Positions 387-50,748 of a stretch of 64,000 nucleotides of DNA are shown piece by piece. The notes under the pieces were generated by a model, which saw nothing but the letters and a program-made list of their open reading frames with translations, was not told the DNA's origin and did not search any database. The stretch lies in assembly GCA_965221865.1 (NCBI GenBank), contig OZ244918.1:1318724-1382723 (forward strand), given 5' to 3'. This stretch comes from Candidatus Poriferisocius sp. (lineage in GTDB: Bacteria; Actinomycetota; Acidimicrobiia; Acidimicrobiales; Bin134). A program made the translations under genes and the position numbers. Every line of letters begins with the position of its first letter. Position 1 is the first letter of the stretch.

Positions 387-665
387 CTATTCCAAAATCA
401 AAGGTTCTCTTTGATGCATCTCCTGCCGCAGTGGCGTCAACGATTCTGTGCGACCTTCAGATGCTAGAAGCAACTCCTTCAGGCTTGGCTGCGCCCTATC
501 AACAAGGCGATACCAATGGTCGATAGGGACGACCACAGCCATTTCTACTCCTCGTTTGGAGACAACTTGGGGGCCTTCAACCAAGCTGGTTTCTAGTAAC
601 TCGCTAAATCGCGCCTTTGCCTCCTGTACTTGCCAAACTTTTCTTGTCGAATCTTTTTGCATACT
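387..665 (-). CDS. Type II antitoxin, Phd/YefM-like (VapB-type)
   Basis: The ORF track gives ...MQKDSTRKVWQVQEAKARFSELLETSLVEGPQVVSKRGVEMAVVVPIDHWYRL..., which is a typical Phd/YefM fold signature. I placed the start at the internal ATG (665), which follows an aggaag Shine-Dalgarno sequence. Confidence 0.65.
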   Translation of the reverse strand, partial: SMQKDSTRKVWQVQEAKARFSELLETSLVEGPQVVSKRGVEMAVVVPIDHWYRLVDRAQPSLKELLLASEGRTESLTPLRQEMHQREPLILE

Positions 666-910
666 ACTTCCTAACTGTTTTCTGATATGTGGCAAGTTCT
701 AGTGGTGGTCGCGACATAGTTGATTGTAGTCGGTTTGGAAATAGACTAAAGGTTGGAGATTTGCAATCCGATCTCGCAGCTCAGAGATTTCTAGCGTGCT
801 GTCAGTCCTCATTTCTCCAGACACGCCTTTCTATGCTGCTTTTTGCTGTAACAGATATTAGCAGGAGTTGTCGCTGCATCAAGAGAGAAAAATGCTAGTG
901 GATTGAATAC

Positions 911-2461: not shown

Positions 2462-5400
2462 GTGCCCGGGCCGTCGGATCAGCAAATGCGGGAATACTTG
2501 GACGCTGGCGATTTCAACGGCTTATTTCGACTACTGGGCTGGGATAACCCCATTGAGGGGCTAACGGCGACAGCTGAGGCCGAACACTCGGAGTGGACCG
2601 CCACGTCAGTGGCCGATAAGCGGGGTGTGACAGTGTGGCTGGTGGAAGCAGACAAGATTCCACCCCGGTCGGTTCAACACCAGATAGTGAAAGCAGCTAA
2701 GCGGTATTCGCGGGATCAACTTATGGTGTTTGCCTCAACAAAGACACAACTTTGGCTGTGGCCCGAGCAACGTCCCTCTGGGGTAGGCCACCGGTTGGTC
2801 GACCACCATTATCACCCCCACCACAGCAACGATGCCCTACTTCAGCGGCTGCACGATGTGTGTTTCACCCTGGCCGAAGAACCGAAGCTCACCGCAACAA
2901 AGGTGCTCGAACGTGTGCGCCGGTCTTTCAACGTTGAGAAGGTGACAAAATTTTTCTTCCGAGAGTTCAAAAAGCACCACGAGCAACTAGCAACTCAAAT
3001 TGAGGGTATACCTCGGCTAGACGATCAGCGTTGGTACGCATCGGTGCTAATGAACCGTCTAATGTTTGTGTACTTCATCCAGCGCAAGGGCTTTGTGGCT
3101 AACGATACCGGCTACCTCCGTAACCGGCTGACCATGGTGCGAGAGCGCTTGGGGAAAGACCAGTTCTACAGCTTCTTCCGCCAGTTCCTGCTACCACTGT
3201 TCCACGAAGGGCTGGGCAGCCCGCCCCCAGTTCGTCGCTATGGCGACGACCCGGTAATAGAGGAGATTATCGGCGAGGTGCCCTATGTAAACGGTGGCAT
3301 ATTTGAGAGCCACCGGCTTGAAGAGACCTACGACATCCAGATTCCAGATACAGTATTTGAATCCCTGTTTGATTTCTTTGACGAATGGCGTTGGCATCTT
3401 GACGAGCGTCCCAGTGGTCATGACAAAGAGATCAACCCTGATATTTTGGGGTTCATCTTTGAGCAGTACGTCAACAAAAAACAAAAGGGGGCCTACTACA
3501 CCAAACCCGATGTGACCGGCTATATGGCTACCTCGACCATCATTCCTGCTTTAGTAGATCGGCTGGTGGATGCTGGCTTAGCTGATCCCTGCGAACTGCT
3601 GCCCAACAGTGGCGACGATTACCTGCACGATGCTATGGGATATGGCTGCGATAAGCCTCTGCCCGAGGGCGACTTGCCGCCCAGCGAGTTCCCCGACGCA
3701 ACACTGGAGATCGCCCTGCCTGGTGAACGGTGGTGCGATGTAACTCACCGCCGCAAGCGTTATGCCGAACAAAAAGAACTGGTGGACTTTGGCAAGGTAG
3801 CTAACATCAACGATACCATCACCCAAAACTTAGATATTGCTGCGTTGCTGGCCGATTATTTCTACACTTTGACCTCGGCCGATGAATGCCAACGCGCTTT
3901 TGAGGTGCTGCGCTCGCTAACCGTTTGCGATCCAACAGTGGGATCAGGCGCATTTCTTCTTGCCGCACTTGACGTGTTAGATCCTCTCTACAGCACAGTA
4001 TTTTACCGCGCTGAAGAGATTGCTGTTGCTGGGGGGGGGGGGGGGCAACCCGCATTCTTGGCCGAAGCTCGAACCCATCCCAGCAAACGCTATTGGCTGC
4101 TTAAAACTCTTTGCCTAAACAACCTTTACGGCGTGGACCTCATGGCCGAGGCCGCCGAAATTGCCAAGCTGCGGCTGTTTTTGAAACTAGCCGCTCAGCT
4201 TAATGACCACACCCAAATCGAACCGCTGCCCGACCTAGATTTCAACATCAAAAGTGGAAACCTTTTGGTAGGCATTGCCGATGAAGATGACATCAAAAGA
4301 CGATTTTCAGATAGAGGAGTACTGCCGTTTGGTTTGGATCCAGCTATGGATGCCGCTCAATCAGTTGCTGCCGCCTATGACGACTTTATAGCTGCCCAAG
4401 CTGCTGAAACCGGTGCAGAAGGCGAACAACACGCTAAAGGCTTGTTACAAGGCAAAATCAAAGCTATCAGCCAACAAGTCGACGCGGCACTCTATGAAAT
4501 GCGAAACGAAAGCCAAAACTTTGAGGAATGGCGAAAATCGCACCAGCCGTTCCACTGGTTTGCCGAGTTCCCCACCGTCTGGCGCAACGGCGGCTTTGAT
4601 GTAATCATCGGCAACCCACCTTATATCGCCGTCTCAAAAAAGAAACGCGACCAGTTCAACTACAAGTGGGTCGGGTACAAAACCGAAAACTGCCCAGACA
4701 TTTATGCCGTATGCGCAGAACGAGCCTCAACCCTGCTCAACAATCGGGGTCGCTTTGCGATGATAGTAATGCACTCGTTGTGTTTTGGGGAAAAATATGT
4801 CTCTCTACGATCTTATCTAAGTGAACATTTTCCCTGCATTTGGGTTTCCTCTTTTGCTCGTATACCTGATTGTCTGTTTTATGGTAGCGCTAAAGTGCGT
4901 AATTCTATTATTATAGGATCACAATACAATGCAAAAAAAATATTTATAACTCGATGTCAGAGATGGTTGACTGAAAGCCGATCTTATTTATTCCCTCAGC
5001 TTAAGTATGCACAAATGCAAAGTGAGCTTCAAAGGAATGATAAGTTCAAAAGATGGCCTTTTTGTGACTCGCAATCAACTATACAAGCATTCTCATTACT
5101 ACATCAGAGTCAAAAAAATATCAATGACTCACTTATTCTAGATTCTCAATTCAAACTTGCGGTAGCAGATAATGCAGGGTATATGATAGGCATATACCCT
5201 GATCCGCCTTTAGATATTCTTGAAGATGGATCTAAAGAACTTTCAAAAAAGTATAACTGGCTTTATTTTTTGAATAGCATCGAGAGAAATATTGCTAGAT
5301 TAGTTCTCAACGGACGCTGGGGATATTTGTGGTGGCTAATGTGGGATGATGAATATCATGTCAAATGTAATGTCCTAACTCGCTTTCCAGCCGACATCAA

Positions 5401-5650
5401 AGGCTTGACAAGCTTAAATACCTCTGAGCAGTTGATAGCCCTCGCAGAACAGCTCAATCAAGAACTGCCTCTACATCTTGCTTATAAGAAAAATGCCAGT
5501 AGAAAAGTAGCTCGTCTTGACATAAATAAGTGCCGTCACATTACTGATGAGGCGGATTGGCTACTGGCTCAGGCTTGGGGATTGACGCGGGAGCAATATG
5601 AGGCGGCTGGCAACCTGCGTGACAGGATGACGTTTGGTAACAGGGACTAA
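2462..5650 (+). CDS. Large N6-adenine DNA methyltransferase (Eco57I / PglX / DrmMI-like, gamma-class) with a C-terminal target-recognition region
   Basis: The SAM-binding motif I DPTVGSGAFLLAAL is at about 3930. The catalytic motif IV is GNPPY, with the NPPY codons at 4613-4624. The protein is 1062 aa and shows no recognisable nuclease motif. Its stop lies 3 nt before the next gene. Confidence 0.85.
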   Translation: MPGPSDQQMREYLDAGDFNGLFRLLGWDNPIEGLTATAEAEHSEWTATSVADKRGVTVWLVEADKIPPRSVQHQIVKAAKRYSRDQLMVFASTKTQLWLWPEQRPSGVGHRLVDHHYHPHHSNDALLQRLHDVCFTLAEEPKLTATKVLERVRRSFNVEKVTKFFFREFKKHHEQLATQIEGIPRLDDQRWYASVLMNRLMFVYFIQRKGFVANDTGYLRNRLTMVRERLGKDQFYSFFRQFLLPLFHEGLGSPPPVRRYGDDPVIEEIIGEVPYVNGGIFESHRLEETYDIQIPDTVFESLFDFFDEWRWHLDERPSGHDKEINPDILGFIFEQYVNKKQKGAYYTKPDVTGYMATSTIIPALVDRLVDAGLADPCELLPNSGDDYLHDAMGYGCDKPLPEGDLPPSEFPDATLEIALPGERWCDVTHRRKRYAEQKELVDFGKVANINDTITQNLDIAALLADYFYTLTSADECQRAFEVLRSLTVCDPTVGSGAFLLAALDVLDPLYSTVFYRAEEIAVAGGGGGQPAFLAEARTHPSKRYWLLKTLCLNNLYGVDLMAEAAEIAKLRLFLKLAAQLNDHTQIEPLPDLDFNIKSGNLLVGIADEDDIKRRFSDRGVLPFGLDPAMDAAQSVAAAYDDFIAAQAAETGAEGEQHAKGLLQGKIKAISQQVDAALYEMRNESQNFEEWRKSHQPFHWFAEFPTVWRNGGFDVIIGNPPYIAVSKKKRDQFNYKWVGYKTENCPDIYAVCAERASTLLNNRGRFAMIVMHSLCFGEKYVSLRSYLSEHFPCIWVSSFARIPDCLFYGSAKVRNSIIIGSQYNAKKIFITRCQRWLTESRSYLFPQLKYAQMQSELQRNDKFKRWPFCDSQSTIQAFSLLHQSQKNINDSLILDSQFKLAVADNAGYMIGIYPDPPLDILEDGSKELSKKYNWLYFLNSIERNIARLVLNGRWGYLWWLMWDDEYHVKCNVLTRFPADIKGLTSLNTSEQLIALAEQLNQELPLHLAYKKNASRKVARLDINKCRHITDEADWLLAQAWGLTREQYEAAGNLRDRMTFGNRD
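4031..4045 (+). repeat. Homopolymeric G15 tract inside the methyltransferase ORF, encoding the Gly run in AGGGGGQ
   Basis: I counted the tract directly: gct, then 15 g, then caaccc. It lies between motif I and motif IV and is currently in frame. Confidence 0.9.
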
Positions 5651-5653
5651 CCA

Positions 5654-8600
5654 GTGCCGCTGATTTTAGACAACATCGACTCTTCGCTTGAAGAGACGAT
5701 GCTCAAATCGCTGGCATCATCACACTCACTAGATGCAGCAGTAGGATACTTCAACCTTCGCGGATGGCGGCTTATTGCCAATGCGGTAGACGCGTTACCT
5801 CGCCAACAAAGTAACCAACCCAAAGTGCGTCTGCTAGTAGGTATGACCGAAAATCCCACCGACGAAATGCGCCGCTTAATGCGCCTACGCCCTACACAGC
5901 CGGTTACCAACGAAATAGCCGAACAACACCGCAACAAAGTCATAAAAGAACTGCGAGCCCAGCTCCAAGTGGGCTTGCCCACCGCCCAAGACGAAGCCGC
6001 ACTACAACAACTACGCCAGCAAATAGCCACTGGCGATGTAGAAATACGGCTGTTTCTAGCCCACCGCCTCCACGCCAAGCTCTACCTCTGCCACCGTGAC
6101 GACACTGCGGCACCCAGAGTGGGTTATGTAGGGTCGTCCAACCTCACCAAAGCAGGACTGCGGGAACAAGGCGAGCTAAACGTAGACGTACTCGACACCG
6201 ATGCCACAACCAAACTCGCTAACTGGTTCAACGACCGCTGGAACGACCAGTTCACCGTGCCTGCCAACCCTCAACTAATCAACCTGCTAGACGAGTCGTG
6301 GGCATCCGAAAAGCTGCTAGACCCATACCTGGTATACCTCAAAATGGCCTATCACCTATCGTCTGAAGCCCGTGAAGGGCTCATACAATACGGCCTGCCA
6401 GCATCAATGGCCGAAAAACTGCTGGACTTTCAGGTAGCCGCAGTAAAAATTGCTGCCCGAATCGTCCATCAGCGGGGCGGAGCCATGGTGGGTGATGTAG
6501 TTGGGCTAGGCAAAACAATAGTGGGCACCGCCATAGCACGGCTGCTGCAAGAAGAAAACGGCTTCGAAACCCTCATCATATGTCCCAAAAACCTAGTGGC
6601 CATGTGGGAATCGTACCGTCACGAGTACCGCCTCCACGGGCGGGTGCTGTCACTGTCGATGGCCACAAAAGAGTTACCCAGCATGCGGCGACACCGGCTG
6701 GTGCTTGTAGACGAATCGCACAACCTACGCAACCCCAAACGAAAGGACTACCAAGTTCTTCACGACTACATCACTGCCAACGACTCTAAAGTGTTGCTGC
6801 TTACCGCCACTCCTTACAACAAAGAATTCGCAGACGTAGCAGCACAAATCGCCCTGTTCACAAGACCCGATACCGACTTAGGCATTCGCCCAACACAAGC
6901 AATCGCCGAACACACCGAAGCTGAGTTTGCCGCGCTGTGCGAGGGGCAAACATCCACGTTGGCAGCATTCCAGAAATCAGATCACCTTGGCGACTGGCAA
7001 GCGCTGATGTCGCAGTTTCTGGTTAGGCGCACCCGCCGCTTCATTCAAGACAACTACGCCCGCCAAGACGAGAAGGGTCGCCCCTACTTAACTTTTGGTA
7101 ACGGCGGGCGTTTCCACTTCCCCGAACGCCAAGCACATCCAGTAGAGCGGGAAGTAGCACCCAGCGATCCTGCTGCGGCAATGATGAGCCCAAACACCAT
7201 CGATGCCATCGCCAACTTGTTGCTGCCCCGCTACAACTTAGCCCGTTACCTCAACCCAAAAGAGACCCCAACCGAAGCTGAACAGGCGGTGATAGATGAC
7301 CTCCATAACTCGGCCAACGGCAACCTCAGCGGATTCAATCGGATTATGATGTTCAAACGTCTCACTTCCTCGGGGCCAGCATTTCTAGCCACCCTGCGCC
7401 GCCACGCACTCCGCAACCTTGTTGCCCTCCACGCTATTAACCATCAAGAACCACTACCAGTGGGCTCGGTAGACAACTCACTATGGTCGGCTGAGTTAGA
7501 TGCCGAAGAAGGCGATCTGTTTGAAGAAGGACTGTTCAGCCCCAGTGAAGTGCCCGATATCTCAGTACCAATGCGAGCATACCAAAAACTAGCCGAAACC
7601 CGACATGGCCGAGTGCGCTGGCTCAGACCCGAACTGTTCACCGAAGAATTTGGCGATGCGTTGCGCACCGACACTCAGGCCATCAAGGAGTTGCTTAGCG
7701 AATTCGGTGCTTGGAATGCCAAACATGATGGCAAAATAGCCTCGCTAATGGAGCTAATCACCCGAAAACACCCTACAGAAAAAGTGCTGGTGTTCACCGA
7801 AGCAGCAGACACTGCGGCCTATCTAGACGAGGAGCTGTCCCGGCGAGGGTTGGAGGATGTAGCCGCGGTAACCGGGAACTCCGAGAACCCTACCGCGCTG
7901 GCCTGTCGTTTCTCGCCCCAATCAAACCAGGGTGTAGATGCAGGCCGAAACCAGCCCGAGTTACGAGTGCTAATCTCAACCGACGTTTTATCGGAAGGCC
8001 AAAACCTGCAAGATGCCCGCATAGTGGTGAACTACGACCTGCCTTGGGCCATCGTACGGTTGGTGCAACGAGCGGGTCGTGTGGATCGCATCGGTCAGCA
8101 AGCCAAAACCGTGCTGGTCTACTCGCTAATGCCATCTGGGTCGGTAGATGAAGAAATCAACCTCCGGAGCCGTATTCGTGGGCGGCTAGAAGAAAACGCC
8201 GAGCTGCTGGGCTCCGACGAGAAGTTCTTTGGCGACGATACTGAGCGCGCAGTCATCTCGGGACTTTATGACGAGAACTCTGATTACCGGTTTACCGATG
8301 GCGGTGAAGAGGTAGATCCAGTGTCTATGGCCTACGAAATCTGGCGCCAAGCTGCCGAAAACTACCCAGACATAGCTAAACAAGTGGAGGCTCTGCCCAA
8401 TGTAGTGTACGCCACGATGGCGAAACAGCCCGGCGGTTTGCAAGAAGGACTGCTTGCGGGAGTGGTAGTACATTCGCAAACAGTGAGCGGAGCAGATGCT
8501 TTCGCATTCACAGACATCGACGGCGAATCGCAACATATCACTCCTCAAGAAGCGCTAAGAACTACCTATTGCACACCCGAGACCAAGCCTGCTAATCGTC

Positions 8601-8977
8601 TAGAAGACCACCACGACATGGTGGCAATTGCGCTTGATGGTCCGTTGCGAGCGCCCCCAAACAAAGCTACCGGTGCGCTGCTAGGCGTGAGGGCAAAGTG
8701 TTGGCAAAAGCTCAACGACCACCGCGCCACCATGACACCAAGCCTATTGGTAAACCCCGAAGAGCTAGACGCAGCCCTCGATACTATTACCCAGCGTCCC
8801 CTGCTTGAAGCTGTCAAACAAAAACTGTCCAACGCTATCCGTAACCGCACCCCCGAAGATTTGGCCGCGCTGGTAATCGACCTCCACAAAGACAACCAAC
8901 TCTGCGTACCAGTCTCCCAAAATAACACGCAAGCCGAGCCCAGCATCATCTGCTCGATGGGACTCCAACCCAAATAG
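5654..8977 (+). CDS. Fusion protein: N-terminal PLD-family (single HKD) nuclease domain, SNF2/DExH helicase and a C-terminal domain of about 300 aa
   Basis: The HKD motif is LHAKLYLCHRDD...VGSSNLT (residues about 139-165). Helicase motifs are I GLGKT, II DESH, III TATP, and VI QRAGRVDRIGQ in the Helicase_C part. Confidence 0.85.
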   Translation: MPLILDNIDSSLEETMLKSLASSHSLDAAVGYFNLRGWRLIANAVDALPRQQSNQPKVRLLVGMTENPTDEMRRLMRLRPTQPVTNEIAEQHRNKVIKELRAQLQVGLPTAQDEAALQQLRQQIATGDVEIRLFLAHRLHAKLYLCHRDDTAAPRVGYVGSSNLTKAGLREQGELNVDVLDTDATTKLANWFNDRWNDQFTVPANPQLINLLDESWASEKLLDPYLVYLKMAYHLSSEAREGLIQYGLPASMAEKLLDFQVAAVKIAARIVHQRGGAMVGDVVGLGKTIVGTAIARLLQEENGFETLIICPKNLVAMWESYRHEYRLHGRVLSLSMATKELPSMRRHRLVLVDESHNLRNPKRKDYQVLHDYITANDSKVLLLTATPYNKEFADVAAQIALFTRPDTDLGIRPTQAIAEHTEAEFAALCEGQTSTLAAFQKSDHLGDWQALMSQFLVRRTRRFIQDNYARQDEKGRPYLTFGNGGRFHFPERQAHPVEREVAPSDPAAAMMSPNTIDAIANLLLPRYNLARYLNPKETPTEAEQAVIDDLHNSANGNLSGFNRIMMFKRLTSSGPAFLATLRRHALRNLVALHAINHQEPLPVGSVDNSLWSAELDAEEGDLFEEGLFSPSEVPDISVPMRAYQKLAETRHGRVRWLRPELFTEEFGDALRTDTQAIKELLSEFGAWNAKHDGKIASLMELITRKHPTEKVLVFTEAADTAAYLDEELSRRGLEDVAAVTGNSENPTALACRFSPQSNQGVDAGRNQPELRVLISTDVLSEGQNLQDARIVVNYDLPWAIVRLVQRAGRVDRIGQQAKTVLVYSLMPSGSVDEEINLRSRIRGRLEENAELLGSDEKFFGDDTERAVISGLYDENSDYRFTDGGEEVDPVSMAYEIWRQAAENYPDIAKQVEALPNVVYATMAKQPGGLQEGLLAGVVVHSQTVSGADAFAFTDIDGESQHITPQEALRTTYCTPETKPANRLEDHHDMVAIALDGPLRAPPNKATGALLGVRAKCWQKLNDHRATMTPSLLVNPEELDAALDTITQRPLLEAVKQKLSNAIRNRTPEDLAALVIDLHKDNQLCVPVSQNNTQAEPSIICSMGLQPK

Positions 8978-9078: not shown

Positions 9079-9300
9079 ATGAACCAAATAACTGCTAGGA
9101 TTTCTGATGAATTAGTTGAAACACTAGATGCAGTTGCCCAAGATTTAAGGCGCAGTCGAGCTGATGTTGTTCGCCAAGCTTTGGAACACTACTTAGAGGA
9201 CTATAGCGATCTCAAAGTTGCTCTTGAACGTCTCAGAGATCCAACTGACCCGGTGCTTGACTGGGACCAAGTCAGACATGAGCTACTCGATTCGGATTAA
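9079..9300 (+). CDS. Ribbon-helix-helix (CopG/RelB-like) antitoxin
   Basis: The translation MNQITARISDELVETLDAVAQDLRRSRADVVRQALEHYLED shows the classic RHH pattern. The gene overlaps the downstream toxin gene. Confidence 0.75.
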   Translation: MNQITARISDELVETLDAVAQDLRRSRADVVRQALEHYLEDYSDLKVALERLRDPTDPVLDWDQVRHELLDSD

Positions 9301-9538
9301 ACGCAGCGCAACCAAAGATTTAACGCAAATTACTCACAAAGATCACAAACGAATTATCTATGCTATAAACCGACTTGGCGAACATCCACACATGGGCTAC
9401 CTATTAAAAGGAGATTTACGGGGACTGCGTCGCGTACGTGTAGGTGAGTATAGAATAATTTATGAAGTCATTGATGATGAGCTAGTGGTTATCGTTATTC
9501 GAGCTGCACACCGAAGAGAAGTCTACCGCCATCATTAA
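9278..9538 (+). CDS. RelE/ParE-family toxin
   Basis: The translation is MSYSIRIKRSATKDLTQITHKDHKRIIYAINRLGEHPHMGYLLKGDLRGLRRVRVGEYRIIYEVIDDELVVIVIRAAHRREVY. I placed the start at ATG 9278 within ORF 9218-9538, which overlaps the antitoxin by 23 nt. Confidence 0.75.
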   Translation: MSYSIRIKRSATKDLTQITHKDHKRIIYAINRLGEHPHMGYLLKGDLRGLRRVRVGEYRIIYEVIDDELVVIVIRAAHRREVYRHH

Positions 9539-9770: not shown

Positions 9771-10235
9771 ATGACAAGGCGGATGAGGATCGCCCATCTT
9801 GTGGGGACTGGCCTTTCGGCAGTCATGACAGGCGTGCTGGTGTTAACCTGGCTTCTTGTTGCCGATGCATCAGACAAGTCACCACTAGTTGCTCGATGGT
9901 GGTTACCGCTAATTGCCTTGGTGAGTTTAGGAACTTCGCTGATGCTGCAAATCCGCATCCGGGTTGATACCACTCAGTATTGTGTACAGCTTTGGCCCTG
10001 GCCTATAAAAACGAAGATTCCAGTTGCTGAAATCACAGCTGCTTGCATTGGTACGGTACGCCCATTTAGAGAGTTCGGGGGTTGGGGCTATAGGGCTAGA
10101 CCGGGCCGCAGGCTCTACAGTTTGGGTGGCCGCCACGGAGTAACCGTTGAATATCAGCACAAAAATAAACCCCGCAAGCTCACCGTAACCACGCAACAAG
10201 CGGACGGGCTGCTCAGCGCTTTGCAAAAAAATTAG
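9771..10235 (+). CDS. Hypothetical membrane protein with two predicted TM helices and a small C-terminal soluble domain
   Basis: Hydrophobic stretches are IAHLVGTGLSAVMTGVLVLTWLLV and WWLPLIALVSLGTSLMLQI. I recognise no family, and the start at the internal ATG 9771 is a choice. Confidence 0.35.
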   Translation: MTRRMRIAHLVGTGLSAVMTGVLVLTWLLVADASDKSPLVARWWLPLIALVSLGTSLMLQIRIRVDTTQYCVQLWPWPIKTKIPVAEITAACIGTVRPFREFGGWGYRARPGRRLYSLGGRHGVTVEYQHKNKPRKLTVTTQQADGLLSALQKN

Positions 10236-11326
10236 GGGCCAAGCACTCCAGCAGGGATTATCGCGACACCATTTTCATCGCGATAAGACTCTTGCCCTGA
10301 GGTGATTACAACAGTGTCTACTAGCTTTGGTCCGAGACGATCTCGCAACCAAGGCAAATGACGAGTGTCGTGGCTATCTATATCTGCTCCAAACTTAACC
10401 TCCGCAGCTAATAGCCGACCCCGATGCTCAATCACTGCATCTACCTCACGCTCATCGTTCCAAGTTCGCATATGGAATACTTTGGCATCTGCGGCCTGTG
10501 CATACACGCGAAGATCGTGAACCACCATCGACTCAAATAGGGAACCAACTAAAGCCGGTCTAGCAGAATTAGACATATCTTGTAGCTGAAAATCCTGCTC
10601 CTGCATAGACTCAGCAGACAGGCTTAGCAAATGAGCTGCAAGTGCGGTGTCTGCTAAGTGATGTTTTGGTTTGCGCTTTAGGCGACTTAAGTGACTGCCT
10701 ACGGGAAGCCAAGCTAGTTGGGGCTCTAGTATCCACATTGCCTCAAGCGTGTCACGGTAGGCAATTGTGGTAGTTTTTGCAGGTTTATCGCTCTCGCCAA
10801 AAGTAGCTGCATCGCGGATTGTTTCATAAGAAGCAGTGCTAGCGGTTGCAGCAGCATAGGCAGTTAGCCAACGAAGCAACGCAGCAGGATTGCGAACTTG
10901 ATAGCCTGCAAGAGGAAAATCATGCTCTACTAATCTGTGAATATAGCTATCTAGCAGCAAACTTCGGGCTCGGCCGCTGATGTTATGCCACCCAGGAAAA
11001 CCCCCTACTACGATCTCATCTAGATAATCCTGTTGCGTTAGTTCACAGTGCTTAACCTCTACAAATTGGTCTCCTGCAAGCAAAGATTTCAAGCTAATCT
11101 TCGACACGTTTGGATAACGCTCGGCCAAAGTGGTAGTCCACATGCGTAAAGTGATAATCCGTCCAGCGCCCGAGTGCGCGGGAGGGGTTTCTGGCAGAGC
11201 TGAACCAGTCAAAATAAATTTCCCGGGGCTGAAATCCTTATCCACAGCTCTACGCACAATGTCCCAAGACTCGGGAAAACGCTGCCACTCATCGATCAAA
11301 ATCGGCGGCTCTCCCTCTAGCAGCAA
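10232..11326 (-). pseudogene. DUF4143-type ATPase lacking its N-terminal P-loop segment (5'-truncated remnant)
   Basis: The ORF begins at (L)LLEGEPPILIDEWQRF, which is the Walker B region. Reading upstream in frame gives ...GAEVQADPR, preceded by a TGA at 11354-11356. No Walker A is encoded upstream. The C-terminal part is DUF4143-like and aligns with the paralog at 56554-57822. Confidence 0.6.
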
Positions 11327-47766: not shown

Positions 47767-50748
47767 ATGTGCGGCATCATCGCAATAGTCCGGCGTAAAT
47801 CGCAAAGAACTGTTCCACAACCATCTGAGGTATTGGCCTTAGTTGATCTGGCTATGCGCTGCTTGCAGAACCTACCTACCAATCTAAAAAGCACATCGCA
47901 ACTACAACAAGCAACAAGCCACCTCAACCAAGCTAACCAGCTTCTAGATGGCATCGCGGGGCTACGGTTACTTTTGTCAGATAAAGTTCTGCGTGAACGC
48001 GTCTACCAGACCATCGCTGAAGTCCACAATCTCATTGAAAACATCCAACACAGCACTAAAAACACAAATCACCTCACCCTAGAAGCCGCAAACGCAGCCC
48101 TAATCAAACTCAAAGATGCAGCTTGGTCCATAAGCAACGACAAGCTACAAACTGCCGAGGCTGTAGCTAACTTCAGCGGATACGCTCCCAGCAAAGCTGC
48201 TATAAGTGCCTTCTGGTCGATTCAAGTAGCTCTAGCCGCATTAGACCGTCTAGAGATACGCGGGCGCGACTCTGCGGGGCTTCACTTGCTAATCCAAAAT
48301 CATGGTCTCAACGTTACCGAACCCGCTATCGCAGATGTTTTGCAACAACGCAGCAACGATCCCAGCTTTCAGTCAAGGTCGGTGCGCTGGGTAGAAGGCC
48401 ACTTGAGTTTCGTTTACAAAACAGCAGCAGAAATCGGCGAACTGGGCGATAACACGAAAGCTCTGCGCGCTGCTATAAGTAACGACACCTTTCTTAAAGC
48501 AGCACTTGCTAACGAAGATGCATCTGTAGTGGTGCTAGGTCATACCCGCTGGGCCAGCGTAGGCACGATCAACGAAGCCAACGCCCATCCGCTCAACTCC
48601 GAACTTACAACCCAGCTGCACTCGGCCAATCAACCGCATACACCATATGCGGTTGCAGCTCTCAACGGTGATGTTGATAACCATGCCAATCTAAGCTCGC
48701 AAAACTCGCTGTCCATTCACCCTGCAATTACCACCGATGCAAAAGTAATACCCACCCTTTGGGCTTGCCGCCTAGCAGCTTACGGCACCCCACTCAGCCT
48801 ACAAAACGTCGTTAATGCTTTCCGTGAAACTGCTAATGAACTACATGGCTCAGTAGCAGTAGCTGCTCAAACTGCCACCCACCCTAACCATATGATGTTG
48901 GCATTACGTGGTAGCGGCCAAGCCCTTTATGTAGGTGCTAGCGAGGATGCCTATGTTGTAGCAAGCGAACCCTACGGCCTTGTAGAGCAATGCAGCAGCT
49001 ACCTGCGTATGGATGGCGAAACTCCAGCTCACCCTAACCATCCCGCAGATAGCAGCGGTCAGATCGTGGTGCTCAACCTTCATGAAGCTGGCAACCTTCA
49101 CACCGCTCAACGGCTCTCCTACAGCGGTACACCGCTGCCCATAACACAAGCTGATATTGCTACCACAGAAATCACCACACGAGATCTCGACCGGCGCGGC
49201 TACCGCCATTACCTGCTAAAAGAAATCAGCGAATCCCAAGAGTCGGTTCGCAAAACTCTACGTGGTCGCCTGATTTCAACTCCGCAATCTGTGCCCCCAT
49301 CAGGCAACTCCCAAAACCAACTCGAACCCGCACTCACTGTTTTGTTTGGCACCGATACCTTGCCTGAAACCCTGTGCCAAAAACTAGCCAGCGGCAAAAT
49401 AACTAAAATTGTTACCATCGGGCAAGGCACAGCAGCAGTAGCCGGACAAGCCCTCGCCTATTTTTTGCGCCAAGAACTCCCACAAATCCATGTCAGCGGC
49501 CTTACTGCTGCTGAGCTATCAGGGTTTGGCCTTAGCGATGATATGGCCAACACTTTAGTTATAGCTATCAGCCAGTCTGGAACCACTACCGACACTAACC
49601 GAACAGTGGACCTTGCTAAACGCCGCGGCGCGTTGGTTATCGGCATCGTCAACCGTCGCAATAGCGAGCTGTGCGAAAAAGCTGACGGCGTGCTTTACAC
49701 CTCCGATGGCCGTGATGTTGAGATGAGCGTTGCCTCTACTAAAGCTTTCTACGCTCAAGTAACCGCTGGTGTGCTTTTAGCTGTTGGGCTAGCCAACATC
49801 ATCAACGGTGCAACTCCTGTGGATGCTTCATCAACTAATGATGCAGCAAACGCAGCACGCCAGCTGCGCCGTCAAAAGCTGCTAGCCACGCTAGCTGCCC
49901 TTCCCACACAGATGGCCGAGGTGCTTGAATCGCAAAACCATATTGCTGAAGTAGTTCGCCGCAGAGGGCTAGGACGCACCTATTGGGCGGTGGTAGGCAA
50001 CGGCCTTAACCAAATCGCTGCCGAAGAAGTGCGTATCAAGCTCTCAGAGCTTTGCTACAAATCCATCTCCTCAGATAGTACCGAAGATAAAAAACATATT
50101 GACTTATCCTCTGAACCGCTTATCTTGGTGTGCGCTTGTGGCCTGTCGGACTCTAACGCCGAAGATGTGGCTAAAGAAGTAGCCATATTTAAAGCCCATC
50201 GCGCGATGCCTATCGTGGTTACAAACCCTTCCCAAGCCCATCTGTATCAAACAGTTGAAGTGCTAAGCGCTCCCACCACGCAATGCCCCGAACTAGCCTT
50301 TGTGCTAACCACCATGGTGGGTCATTTGTTTGGCTACGAATCGGCCTTGGCCATCAACGAGCTAGCTCAACCCCTGCGCGCTACCCGTGCTGTTATCCAA
50401 GATGCTCTAAGCAAAAACCTGCACACTGCTAATATCCAAACCCTAAACACTTCGTTAGAGCCTTTAGCTCAAAAGTTTCTAAACGACCTTAACGAAGGCT
50501 GTTACAACGGTTGTTTACAAGCTAGTACTGCGGTTGCTGTGGCTAACTTGTACCACTTTGCTATAGGAAAAACCCCGCTAGATACCTACCAAATATCCTC
50601 AAATACCATTGATACCATTAGTACTGTTCAGGCAGTTCTAGAAAACTTCCTAACCTGTCTGACTGTAGCTATTGACGAACTAACCCGCCCGATTGACGCA
50701 ATCCGCCATCAAGCAAAAACCGTCACAGTGGGCATTACCCGCCGCTAA
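47767..50748 (+). CDS. Glutamine--fructose-6-phosphate aminotransferase-like protein, unusually large at 993 aa
   Basis: The N-terminal nucleophile is MCGIIAIV. Class-II GATase motifs are RGRDSAG, GHTRWASVG...NAHP and NGDVDNH. Two SIS domains are present (ISQSGTTTDT, VASTKAFYAQ). The C-terminal AKTVTVG is related to the GlmS AKSVTVE tail. Large insertions are described in the findings. Confidence 0.7.
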   Translation: MCGIIAIVRRKSQRTVPQPSEVLALVDLAMRCLQNLPTNLKSTSQLQQATSHLNQANQLLDGIAGLRLLLSDKVLRERVYQTIAEVHNLIENIQHSTKNTNHLTLEAANAALIKLKDAAWSISNDKLQTAEAVANFSGYAPSKAAISAFWSIQVALAALDRLEIRGRDSAGLHLLIQNHGLNVTEPAIADVLQQRSNDPSFQSRSVRWVEGHLSFVYKTAAEIGELGDNTKALRAAISNDTFLKAALANEDASVVVLGHTRWASVGTINEANAHPLNSELTTQLHSANQPHTPYAVAALNGDVDNHANLSSQNSLSIHPAITTDAKVIPTLWACRLAAYGTPLSLQNVVNAFRETANELHGSVAVAAQTATHPNHMMLALRGSGQALYVGASEDAYVVASEPYGLVEQCSSYLRMDGETPAHPNHPADSSGQIVVLNLHEAGNLHTAQRLSYSGTPLPITQADIATTEITTRDLDRRGYRHYLLKEISESQESVRKTLRGRLISTPQSVPPSGNSQNQLEPALTVLFGTDTLPETLCQKLASGKITKIVTIGQGTAAVAGQALAYFLRQELPQIHVSGLTAAELSGFGLSDDMANTLVIAISQSGTTTDTNRTVDLAKRRGALVIGIVNRRNSELCEKADGVLYTSDGRDVEMSVASTKAFYAQVTAGVLLAVGLANIINGATPVDASSTNDAANAARQLRRQKLLATLAALPTQMAEVLESQNHIAEVVRRRGLGRTYWAVVGNGLNQIAAEEVRIKLSELCYKSISSDSTEDKKHIDLSSEPLILVCACGLSDSNAEDVAKEVAIFKAHRAMPIVVTNPSQAHLYQTVEVLSAPTTQCPELAFVLTTMVGHLFGYESALAINELAQPLRATRAVIQDALSKNLHTANIQTLNTSLEPLAQKFLNDLNEGCYNGCLQASTAVAVANLYHFAIGKTPLDTYQISSNTIDTISTVQAVLENFLTCLTVAIDELTRPIDAIRHQAKTVTVGITRR

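Follow-up and report, generated by a model that had tools for sequence, protein, structure and literature searches.

The stretch analysed here (64,000 nucleotides (nt) of Candidatus Poriferisocius sp., contig OZ244918.1, positions 1,318,724 to 1,382,723; hereafter the window) contains an unbroken run of 15 G in frame within a gene for an N6-adenine DNA methyltransferase, which is followed by a gene for an HKD-SNF2 nuclease-helicase. Comparison with related loci indicates that this G15 tract is very likely a hypermutable simple sequence repeat (SSR), or contingency locus, switching the methyltransferase/recognition subunit of a two-gene restriction-modification (RM)-like system ON and OFF by slipped-strand mispairing. 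An SSR-switched RM methyltransferase is a known kind of system; what is new is its occurrence in Acidimicrobiia and in this two-gene arrangement. The window sequence is chromosomal and its host belongs to Acidimicrobiia, in keeping with the actinobacterial setting given in an earlier note on this DNA: SecY matches Acidimicrobiales/Acidimicrobiia proteins at ~70% and a protein on a 3.6-Mb contig at 94%, and GlnD is the actinobacterial equivalog.

The G15 tract and the methyltransferase gene

The local sequence of the window is GCTGTTGCT-G15-CAACCCGCA, the G run occupying positions 4031-4045 of the forward strand and leaving the gene in the ON frame. In frame 1 of the open reading frame (ORF) 2462-5650, the run forms five GGG codons for Gly524-528 within AGGGGGQ (protein context ...EEIAVAGGGGGQPAFL...), as the earlier note had described it; orthologous tracts are G21 and G8-G13. 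Chance origin does not account for the run, because the G+C content of the window is 50.3%, the sole other run of at least six G is one G7, ~2e-5 G15 runs are expected in the window with independent bases, and GGG accounts for 17.5% of glycine codons across 17 long window ORFs (p ~1.7e-4 for five glycines to be all encoded by GGG).

The methyltransferase gene (2462-5650, forward strand, with the stop codon TAA at 5648-5650) encodes 1062 amino acids (aa), comprising an N-terminal domain, a gamma-class N6-adenine core and a C-terminal target-recognition region, and is assigned to the PglX/Eco57I/MmeI type by Pfam, PADLOC and fold. The Pfam matches are Eco57I (1.2e-28), MmeI_Mtase and N6_Mtase, and the PADLOC model REase_MTase_IIG (PDLC03628) covers aa 10-1047, i.e., the full length, with E = 6.7e-180. 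An AlphaFold2 model built with 41 homologs reached a predicted local distance difference test score (pLDDT) of 87.5 and a predicted template modelling score of 0.91; its best fold matches in the PDB were BREX PglX/BrxX, followed by CamA, DrdV and MmeI. A PDB sequence search gave a marginal PglX match only, and a look-up of the exact protein found no record. In the model, the N-terminal domain has an alpha/beta fold (strands 46-117), and a D...ExK triad is absent among the methyltransferase residues that are invariant or at least 90% conserved.

The tract lies downstream of motif I DPTVGSGAF for S-adenosylmethionine binding (3929-3955, forward strand as for the following motifs; D490 to F498 are invariant in the 41 homologs) and upstream of the motif II region NNLYGVD (4118-4138), which by alignment is the first conserved block lost on frameshift. 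The catalytic motif IV NPPY (4613-4624; N718 to Y721 invariant) and the putative target-recognition region (4859-5461, aa ~800-1000) follow. Motif I, NPPY and the next gene 3 nt on, the landmarks by which the earlier note had placed the tract, were all exact on re-reading. Its prediction that a change of one G truncates the enzyme before catalysis was borne out by simulated G13, G14, G16 and G17 tracts, with which the protein, including the G14 and G16 products, ends at 546-552 aa, before NPPY and the target-recognition domain. An A8 run in the recognition region (4933-4940, aa 824) is shorter than the tracts usually regarded as phase-variable, and relatives have nothing that corresponds to it.

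The glycines belong to a surface loop of aa 524-530 (4031-4051, forward strand; hereafter site B), which the secondary structure of the AlphaFold2 model places between helix 497-523, the long helix after motif I, and helix 531-537. The pLDDT of this block dips to 79, from 94 and 89 in the blocks on either side. Among 120 aligned homologs, site B contains indels of 0-11 aa and is the sole stretch between motif I and motif II that varies freely in both length and sequence. Because of this free variation, in-frame length changes at site B should be harmless. A structural role for the Gly5 loop was considered and rejected, neither the length nor the sequence of the loop being conserved among homologs.

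Repeats and ON/OFF alleles among relatives

The search with the full-length protein favoured full-length relatives, none of which exceeded 62% identity; a search with the N-terminal half then found a truncated direct ortholog (L095, assembly ERZ25070844) through a 545-aa protein, 93% identical to the N-terminal half of the methyltransferase. Its locus is syntenic with the window, containing the ATPase, methyltransferase and helicase genes, the 163-aa ORF, the DUF4143 gene and the Fur gene in the same order, with DNA 92-95% identical to the window and a G+C content of 49.9%. The tract is G21 there and out of frame, and either G19 or G22 restores a 1134-codon ORF. Protein identity to the window is 90-98% in most of the N-terminal 600 aa and 24-48% at aa 800-1000, where the putative target-recognition region is replaced between the two, and blastn leaves window positions 4786-5534 (versus 12306-13084 in L095) unaligned. 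This pattern in the sequences suggests recombinational exchange of specificity alleles between the window and L095, as in Type III mod and Cj0031.

Several kinds of repeat occupy site B in other relatives. Two loci with identical flanks and ~80% identity to the window in the N-terminal half contain G10 (L093) and G8 (L094), both OFF, where G9 would be ON; the tract is G13 and OFF in L053 (68% identity to the N-terminal half), and G9 and ON in L004 (59% overall identity). L007, the sister of the window in a neighbour-joining tree, has (TG)15 and is OFF. Repeats of (GA)10-23 were found at site B in L001, L002, L003, L005 and L085, including (GA)10, (GA)11, (GA)14, (AG)17 and (AG)23, and the site B repeats of L098, L096 and L097 are (CT)11, (ACGAC)27 and (TCAGG)13, respectively. 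Tract length in orthologs had been put forward in the earlier note as a test by which the switch might be refuted; the tract proved to be both present and variable: it is G21 in L095, and of the four relatives with G8, G9, G10 and G13, all but L004 are out of frame. In L008, a homolog with 75% identity, the contig ends at position 6606, 6 nt short of the site B loop, which suggests that assemblies break at the repeat.

A second hot spot, hereafter site A, is a loop at about aa 400 of the N-terminal region in an Acidimicrobiales sister clade (46-54% identity), which is without a site B repeat. The repeats at site A are G9-G17, C12, (TC)9-12, (TCGG)n, (GGAC)n of ~56 units and (CGAC)27, and close sisters differ in motif, e.g., C12 versus (CGAC)27. 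The clade total is two hot spots and at least 10 repeat motifs. Different repeat motifs have thus been gained independently at these two loops across the clade.

Repeats were searched with unit sizes of 1-8, counting homopolymers of at least 8 bases and dinucleotides of at least six units. Across 29 loci of the Acidimicrobiia clade (405,760 nt), there are 33 repeat tracts, of which the methyltransferase hot spots account for 28: the two loops for 27 and a position near aa 314 for one (G11 in L010). The methyltransferase gene contains such a repeat in 25 of the 29 loci. Sixty loci of distant homologs from other phyla (33-39% identity; 720,062 nt) contain 28 repeats, none of which is at the site A or site B loops. 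The helicase genes hold three repeats in all the clade and distant loci scanned. A single-protein scan of the metagenome collection returned three loci only.

Nine ON and 20 OFF alleles were verified in DNA. The ON genomes include the window, L005, L006, L017 and L021; L095, L053, L010 and L065 are among those that are OFF. The targeted look-ups were biased to OFF and were left out of the estimate of frame distribution; the frame-blind DNA scans gave five ON and 14 OFF, which is compatible with the one third expected if frames drift freely. The repeat is the sole lesion in every one of the 20 OFF alleles (16 from scans and four fetched later), and a change of one repeat unit turns each of them into an ORF of at least 1070 codons. 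The partner ORF is full length and free of stops in all 16 OFF loci checked.

Both states occur within protein clusters at the species level. In the 90% identity cluster of P0008, full-length members of 1076-1080 aa, which differ in the number of Glu-Arg repeats, are found together with split pairs of 562+505 and 548+503 aa, each pair encoded by neighbouring ORFs of one contig. The members of cluster P0065 are full length at 1063 and 1064 aa, apart from a 539-aa truncation; those of cluster P0076 are either full length, at 1069 and 1089 aa, or fragments of 414+607 aa, the split being at the G tract. Five P0076 contigs show G9 (OFF) in their DNA, and eight contigs carry that truncated product; the full-length P0076 members presumably have G10. 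Both (GA)10 and (GA)14 occur inside one 90% cluster. The locus has several of the properties by which a switching SSR is recognized, namely a tract of at least nine bases (G15), length polymorphism among relatives, and toggling of the frame with ON and OFF alleles.

Some further arrangements were observed at these loci. In L087-L091, an intergenic poly-G lies ~94 nt upstream of the methyltransferase start (e.g., 4907-4916 in L087), with G10 in three samples and G11 in two; it may give the P0076-type system a further variable repeat, at the level of the promoter. The assembly GCA_026702705.1 has two paralogous methyltransferase + HKD-SNF2 systems on separate contigs, with (GA)14 at site B in L085 and G9 at site A in L088, both OFF. 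In L030 (OZ244856.1, a metagenome-assembled genome (MAG) of Acidimicrobiia), the methyltransferase segment encoding aa 202-525 is inverted (5636-6639), with one breakpoint exactly at the site B loop and an 11-nt inverted repeat (AAGTTCATTTA / TAAATGAACTT) at both junctions; this could be a second, inversion-type OFF mechanism or an assembly artefact. L009 is without a repeat and has a frameshift at about aa 353 (~6062-6065), where one G is apparently missing from a short G run (GACGGCTATATG); this may reflect either a true pseudogene or an error in sequencing.

Proposed reversible switching and its alternatives

In the proposed mechanism, slipped-strand mispairing would alter the length of the tract. 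A step of 3 nt would do no more than change the size of a glycine loop, dispensable in this view, that lies where the helical hairpin between motifs I and II turns; after a step of 1 or 2 nt, translation would halt ~20-25 codons on, with the loss of motif II, NPPY and the target-recognition domain. The HKD-SNF2 protein, which stays genetically intact in OFF genomes, is predicted to need the methyltransferase subunit for site recognition or recruitment, and an OFF cell would lose methylation and restriction together without killing itself. Polarity on the partner, through lost translational coupling over ~1.6 kb of untranslated mRNA, may add down-regulation. From the comparison of loci we infer that the tract changes by slippage, that switching is reversible within a population, that the nuclease depends on the methyltransferase, that polarity acts on the downstream gene, and that the switch is adaptive (as bet-hedging against phage or the cost of autoimmunity, or as a phasevarion).

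Many genomes combine an OFF methyltransferase with an intact nuclease-helicase, which argues that the nuclease cannot attack unmethylated self DNA alone; most likely, it depends on the methyltransferase subunit. The intact partner in OFF loci also fits the argument of the earlier note that the OFF state is tolerable only if the nuclease needs the methyltransferase. In Type III systems, Res needs Mod for recognition, hence the loss of Mod is tolerated. To our knowledge, Actinobacteria are without MutS/MutL, an absence that would favour high indel rates at such tracts. A mononucleotide tract is considered phase-variable at nine bases or more, with cited rates of ~1e-3 (Atack et al. 2018, PMC5909438).

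A reversible slipped-strand switch fits these observations far better than pseudogene decay, because the repeat is the sole lesion of OFF alleles, the partner is intact and the clusters hold both states. The alternative is that neutral slippage in tolerant loops is followed by decay, so that the repeats arise by mutation pressure and the out-of-frame alleles are young pseudogenes with no adaptive or reversible function. All homologs indeed differ in the length and sequence of the loop, where the pLDDT is lower; more alleles are OFF than ON, with the closest subclade all OFF in databases; and both the L009 frameshift away from any repeat and the L030 inversion are what decay could leave. However, decay would scatter stops and indels, which none of the 20 OFF alleles and none of the 16 partner genes show; the distant homologs share the variable loop and yet have no repeat there in 60 loci; sister taxa swap repeat motifs at the same site; and the tracts, of up to 27 pentanucleotide or ~56 tetranucleotide units, far exceed neutral coding repeats. 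Decay of this kind is therefore judged unlikely.

We regard two other explanations as more improbable still. The tract could be a leaky attenuator, at which slippage of RNA polymerase or frameshifting of the ribosome yields some in-frame product from every allele, so that its length sets the expression level and OFF means low expression. This would explain why OFF-frame alleles are common and otherwise perfectly preserved, and transcriptional slippage is established on A/T homopolymer runs; on G runs and 4-5 nt units, however, its efficiency is not established, no specific sequence support was found, and an attenuator would be compatible with DNA-level phase variation, which the length polymorphism of orthologs shows directly. 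We consider it quite improbable. Least credible is a sequencing or assembly artefact, in which the platform made the G run or its length (poly-G artefact, homopolymer compression or expansion) and neither has biological meaning. Long G runs are error-prone, the L008 contig ends 6 nt before the site, and several relatives are apparently long-read assemblies, by their contig names. Nevertheless, a conserved ORF runs in frame through the tract, with flanks that match to either side; at least five independent assemblies have a homologous G tract at this very codon; and SPAdes/MEGAHIT-style contigs, presumably from short reads, carry dinucleotide repeats, which are not prone to homopolymer error. 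Such an artefact could make the length wrong by one; it could not account for the tract as such.

Several points count against the slipped-strand switch. The evidence comes from comparison between genomes, so that switching within one population, its rate and its reversibility are predictions. Tracts of G8-G21 are miscalled by long- and short-read chemistries, so the ON/OFF calls at poly-G (G15 in the window, G21 in L095) may be off by one, a caveat from which alleles with repeat units of two, four or five nucleotides are exempt. Within the closest subclade (N-terminal identity of at least 68%), only the window is ON, all the database alleles being OFF, which could reflect relaxed selection and incipient gene loss. 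Finally, we know of no methylation or defence phenotype for the family.

The clade relatives come mostly from sponge microbiomes, by their record names, and have genomes of ~3 Mb. The chances are about even that a whole clade of apparently sponge-associated Acidimicrobiia keeps the PglX-like + HKD-SNF2 system under stochastic control through new repeats at two fixed loops, with most natural cells OFF, as bet-hedged immunity or a phasevarion in uncultured mutualistic symbionts. If true, this would also show genetically that the HKD-SNF2 nuclease is inactive without its methyltransferase subunit. Repeat-driven RM switching is textbook in small-genome pathogens, and its logic appears here in a whole clade of Acidimicrobiia that have not been cultured. 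The range of stochastic immunity or epigenetic switching would thereby come to include symbionts in the environment as well as Actinomycetota, from which few cases have been described. The literature searched, subscription journals lying outside it, yielded no report of methyltransferases switched by repeats in Acidimicrobiia, sponge symbionts or MAGs. The added value lies in a switch site that is common to, and re-invented repeatedly across, a clade of uncultured symbionts. Natural OFF genomes with an intact HKD-SNF2 gene are common and provide a free genetic constraint on an uncharacterised defence system. If the switch is real, an N6-methyladenine motif is expected in ON genomes only, and both ON and OFF genomes are already in public long-read data. 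For annotation, it is a warning that MAG catalogues list such genes as two hypothetical fragments and that contigs can break at the site.

The partner gene, its neighbourhood and known systems

The HKD(PLD)-SNF2 nuclease-helicase gene (5654-8977, forward strand, 1107 aa), the presumed restriction subunit, starts with GTG at 5654, 3 nt past the methyltransferase stop, and encodes an N-terminal single-HKD PLD nuclease domain followed by a SNF2 motor. This assignment derives from Pfam (PLDc_2, RE_NgoFVII, SNF2-rel_dom and Helicase_C), PADLOC (HKD+Snf2 C3a139, 3.5e-41; DrmD; BrxH) and the motifs HxK...GSSN at 6071-6160, GLGKT at 6503 and DESH at 6710. The two genes adjoin in every related locus inspected, with a gap of 0 to ~120 nt (3-8 nt in the closest ON loci). 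The upstream AAA_16 ATPase gene (911-2278, 455 aa) was considered as a third component, as in Hma/BR, and rejected, since it is absent from the homolog loci other than the direct ortholog and is not DUF499.

The operon is flanked by genes for a Phd/YefM antitoxin (387-695, reverse strand), a ParE toxin (9218-9538, forward strand) and an AAA_14/DUF4143 ATPase (10232-11326, reverse strand), the last of which matches the PADLOC candidate PDC-S01 (1.8e-60). The region resembles a small defence and toxin-antitoxin island beside housekeeping genes. Farther away, a 993-aa ORF beside glmM (47767-50748) matches GlmS over aa 244-862 only, well under the family cut-off, which may mean either that the protein is GlmS-like and unusually long or that the ORF was called too long.

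Membership in several known defence systems was rejected. Class 1 DISARM, which combines DrmA (helicase) and DrmB (DUF1998) with DrmC, DrmD and DrmMI, had only weak DrmMI and DrmD model matches, with neither DrmA nor DrmB among the genes called around the homolog loci, and the BREX assignment had missing core genes or wrong domain types. In the actinobacterium M. tuberculosis, reversible frameshifts in the short homopolymer (C7) of glpK give rise to heritable, unstable phenotypes; glpK is a metabolic gene, whereas the window tract is in a defence methyltransferase gene. The passages of PMC12839542 on BREX-related (BR) systems describe a Type-2 BR composed of a DUF499 ATPase, an N6-adenine methyltransferase, an HKD-Swi2/Snf2 helicase and DUF3780, and predicted to be RM-like. 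Its N-terminal HKD on the Swi2/Snf2 helicase and its PglX-like N6-adenine methyltransferase are likewise found as a pair in the window. Membership was rejected for want of DUF499 and DUF3780, neither of which was found by Pfam at the window locus, where the 455-aa upstream ORF matches AAA_16/AAA_22 only and the small ORFs are without DUF3780. Repeat-based switching does not appear in those passages.

The window protein shows the core of Type IIG/IIL enzymes, i.e., an Eco57I/MmeI-type core with C-terminal target recognition in ~1000 aa. Cj0031 of C. jejuni NCTC11168 (CjeNIII-type Type IIG; Anjum et al. 2016, PMC4889913) is likewise an Eco57I-family N6-adenine methyltransferase of more than 1000 aa with a G9 switch in mid-gene; its target-recognition region varies by strain, and only a subset of alleles contains the tract (PMC4889913). 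However, Cj0031 is described as a single polypeptide with fused endonuclease and methyltransferase, in a small-genome pathogen, whereas the window clade always has a separate HKD-SNF2 gene, and the tract is longer (15-21 G) and belongs to an uncultured member of Acidimicrobiia. Cj0031-like methyltransferase genes beside coding sequences for a PLD+SNF helicase were described by Milman et al. 2023 (PMC9881135); those loci vary by programmed inversion, whereas the window clade varies by repeats.

The Type III mod genes and phasevarions of Haemophilus, Neisseria and Helicobacter (PMC5909438) share with the window clade the order of mod before res, the repeat in the methyltransferase/recognition gene, the use of mono-, di-, tetra- and pentanucleotide repeats with many independent origins, and the allelic target-recognition domains. 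Type III membership was nevertheless rejected: the methyltransferase matches Eco57I/MmeI/PglX and is of the gamma class, PglX/Eco57I-like, with motif I upstream of NPPY, unlike Type III Mod. Its partner combines an N-terminal HKD with a SNF2 motor, unlike Type III Res, in which an SF2 helicase is joined to a C-terminal PD-(D/E)xK nuclease. The position of the repeats, at aa ~400 and ~524 of 1062 in the window clade, also differs from that in Type III mod. The window system shares its methyltransferase family with Type IIG/IIL and resembles Type III in its working, with a mod-like and a res-like gene and the repeat in the mod-like one.

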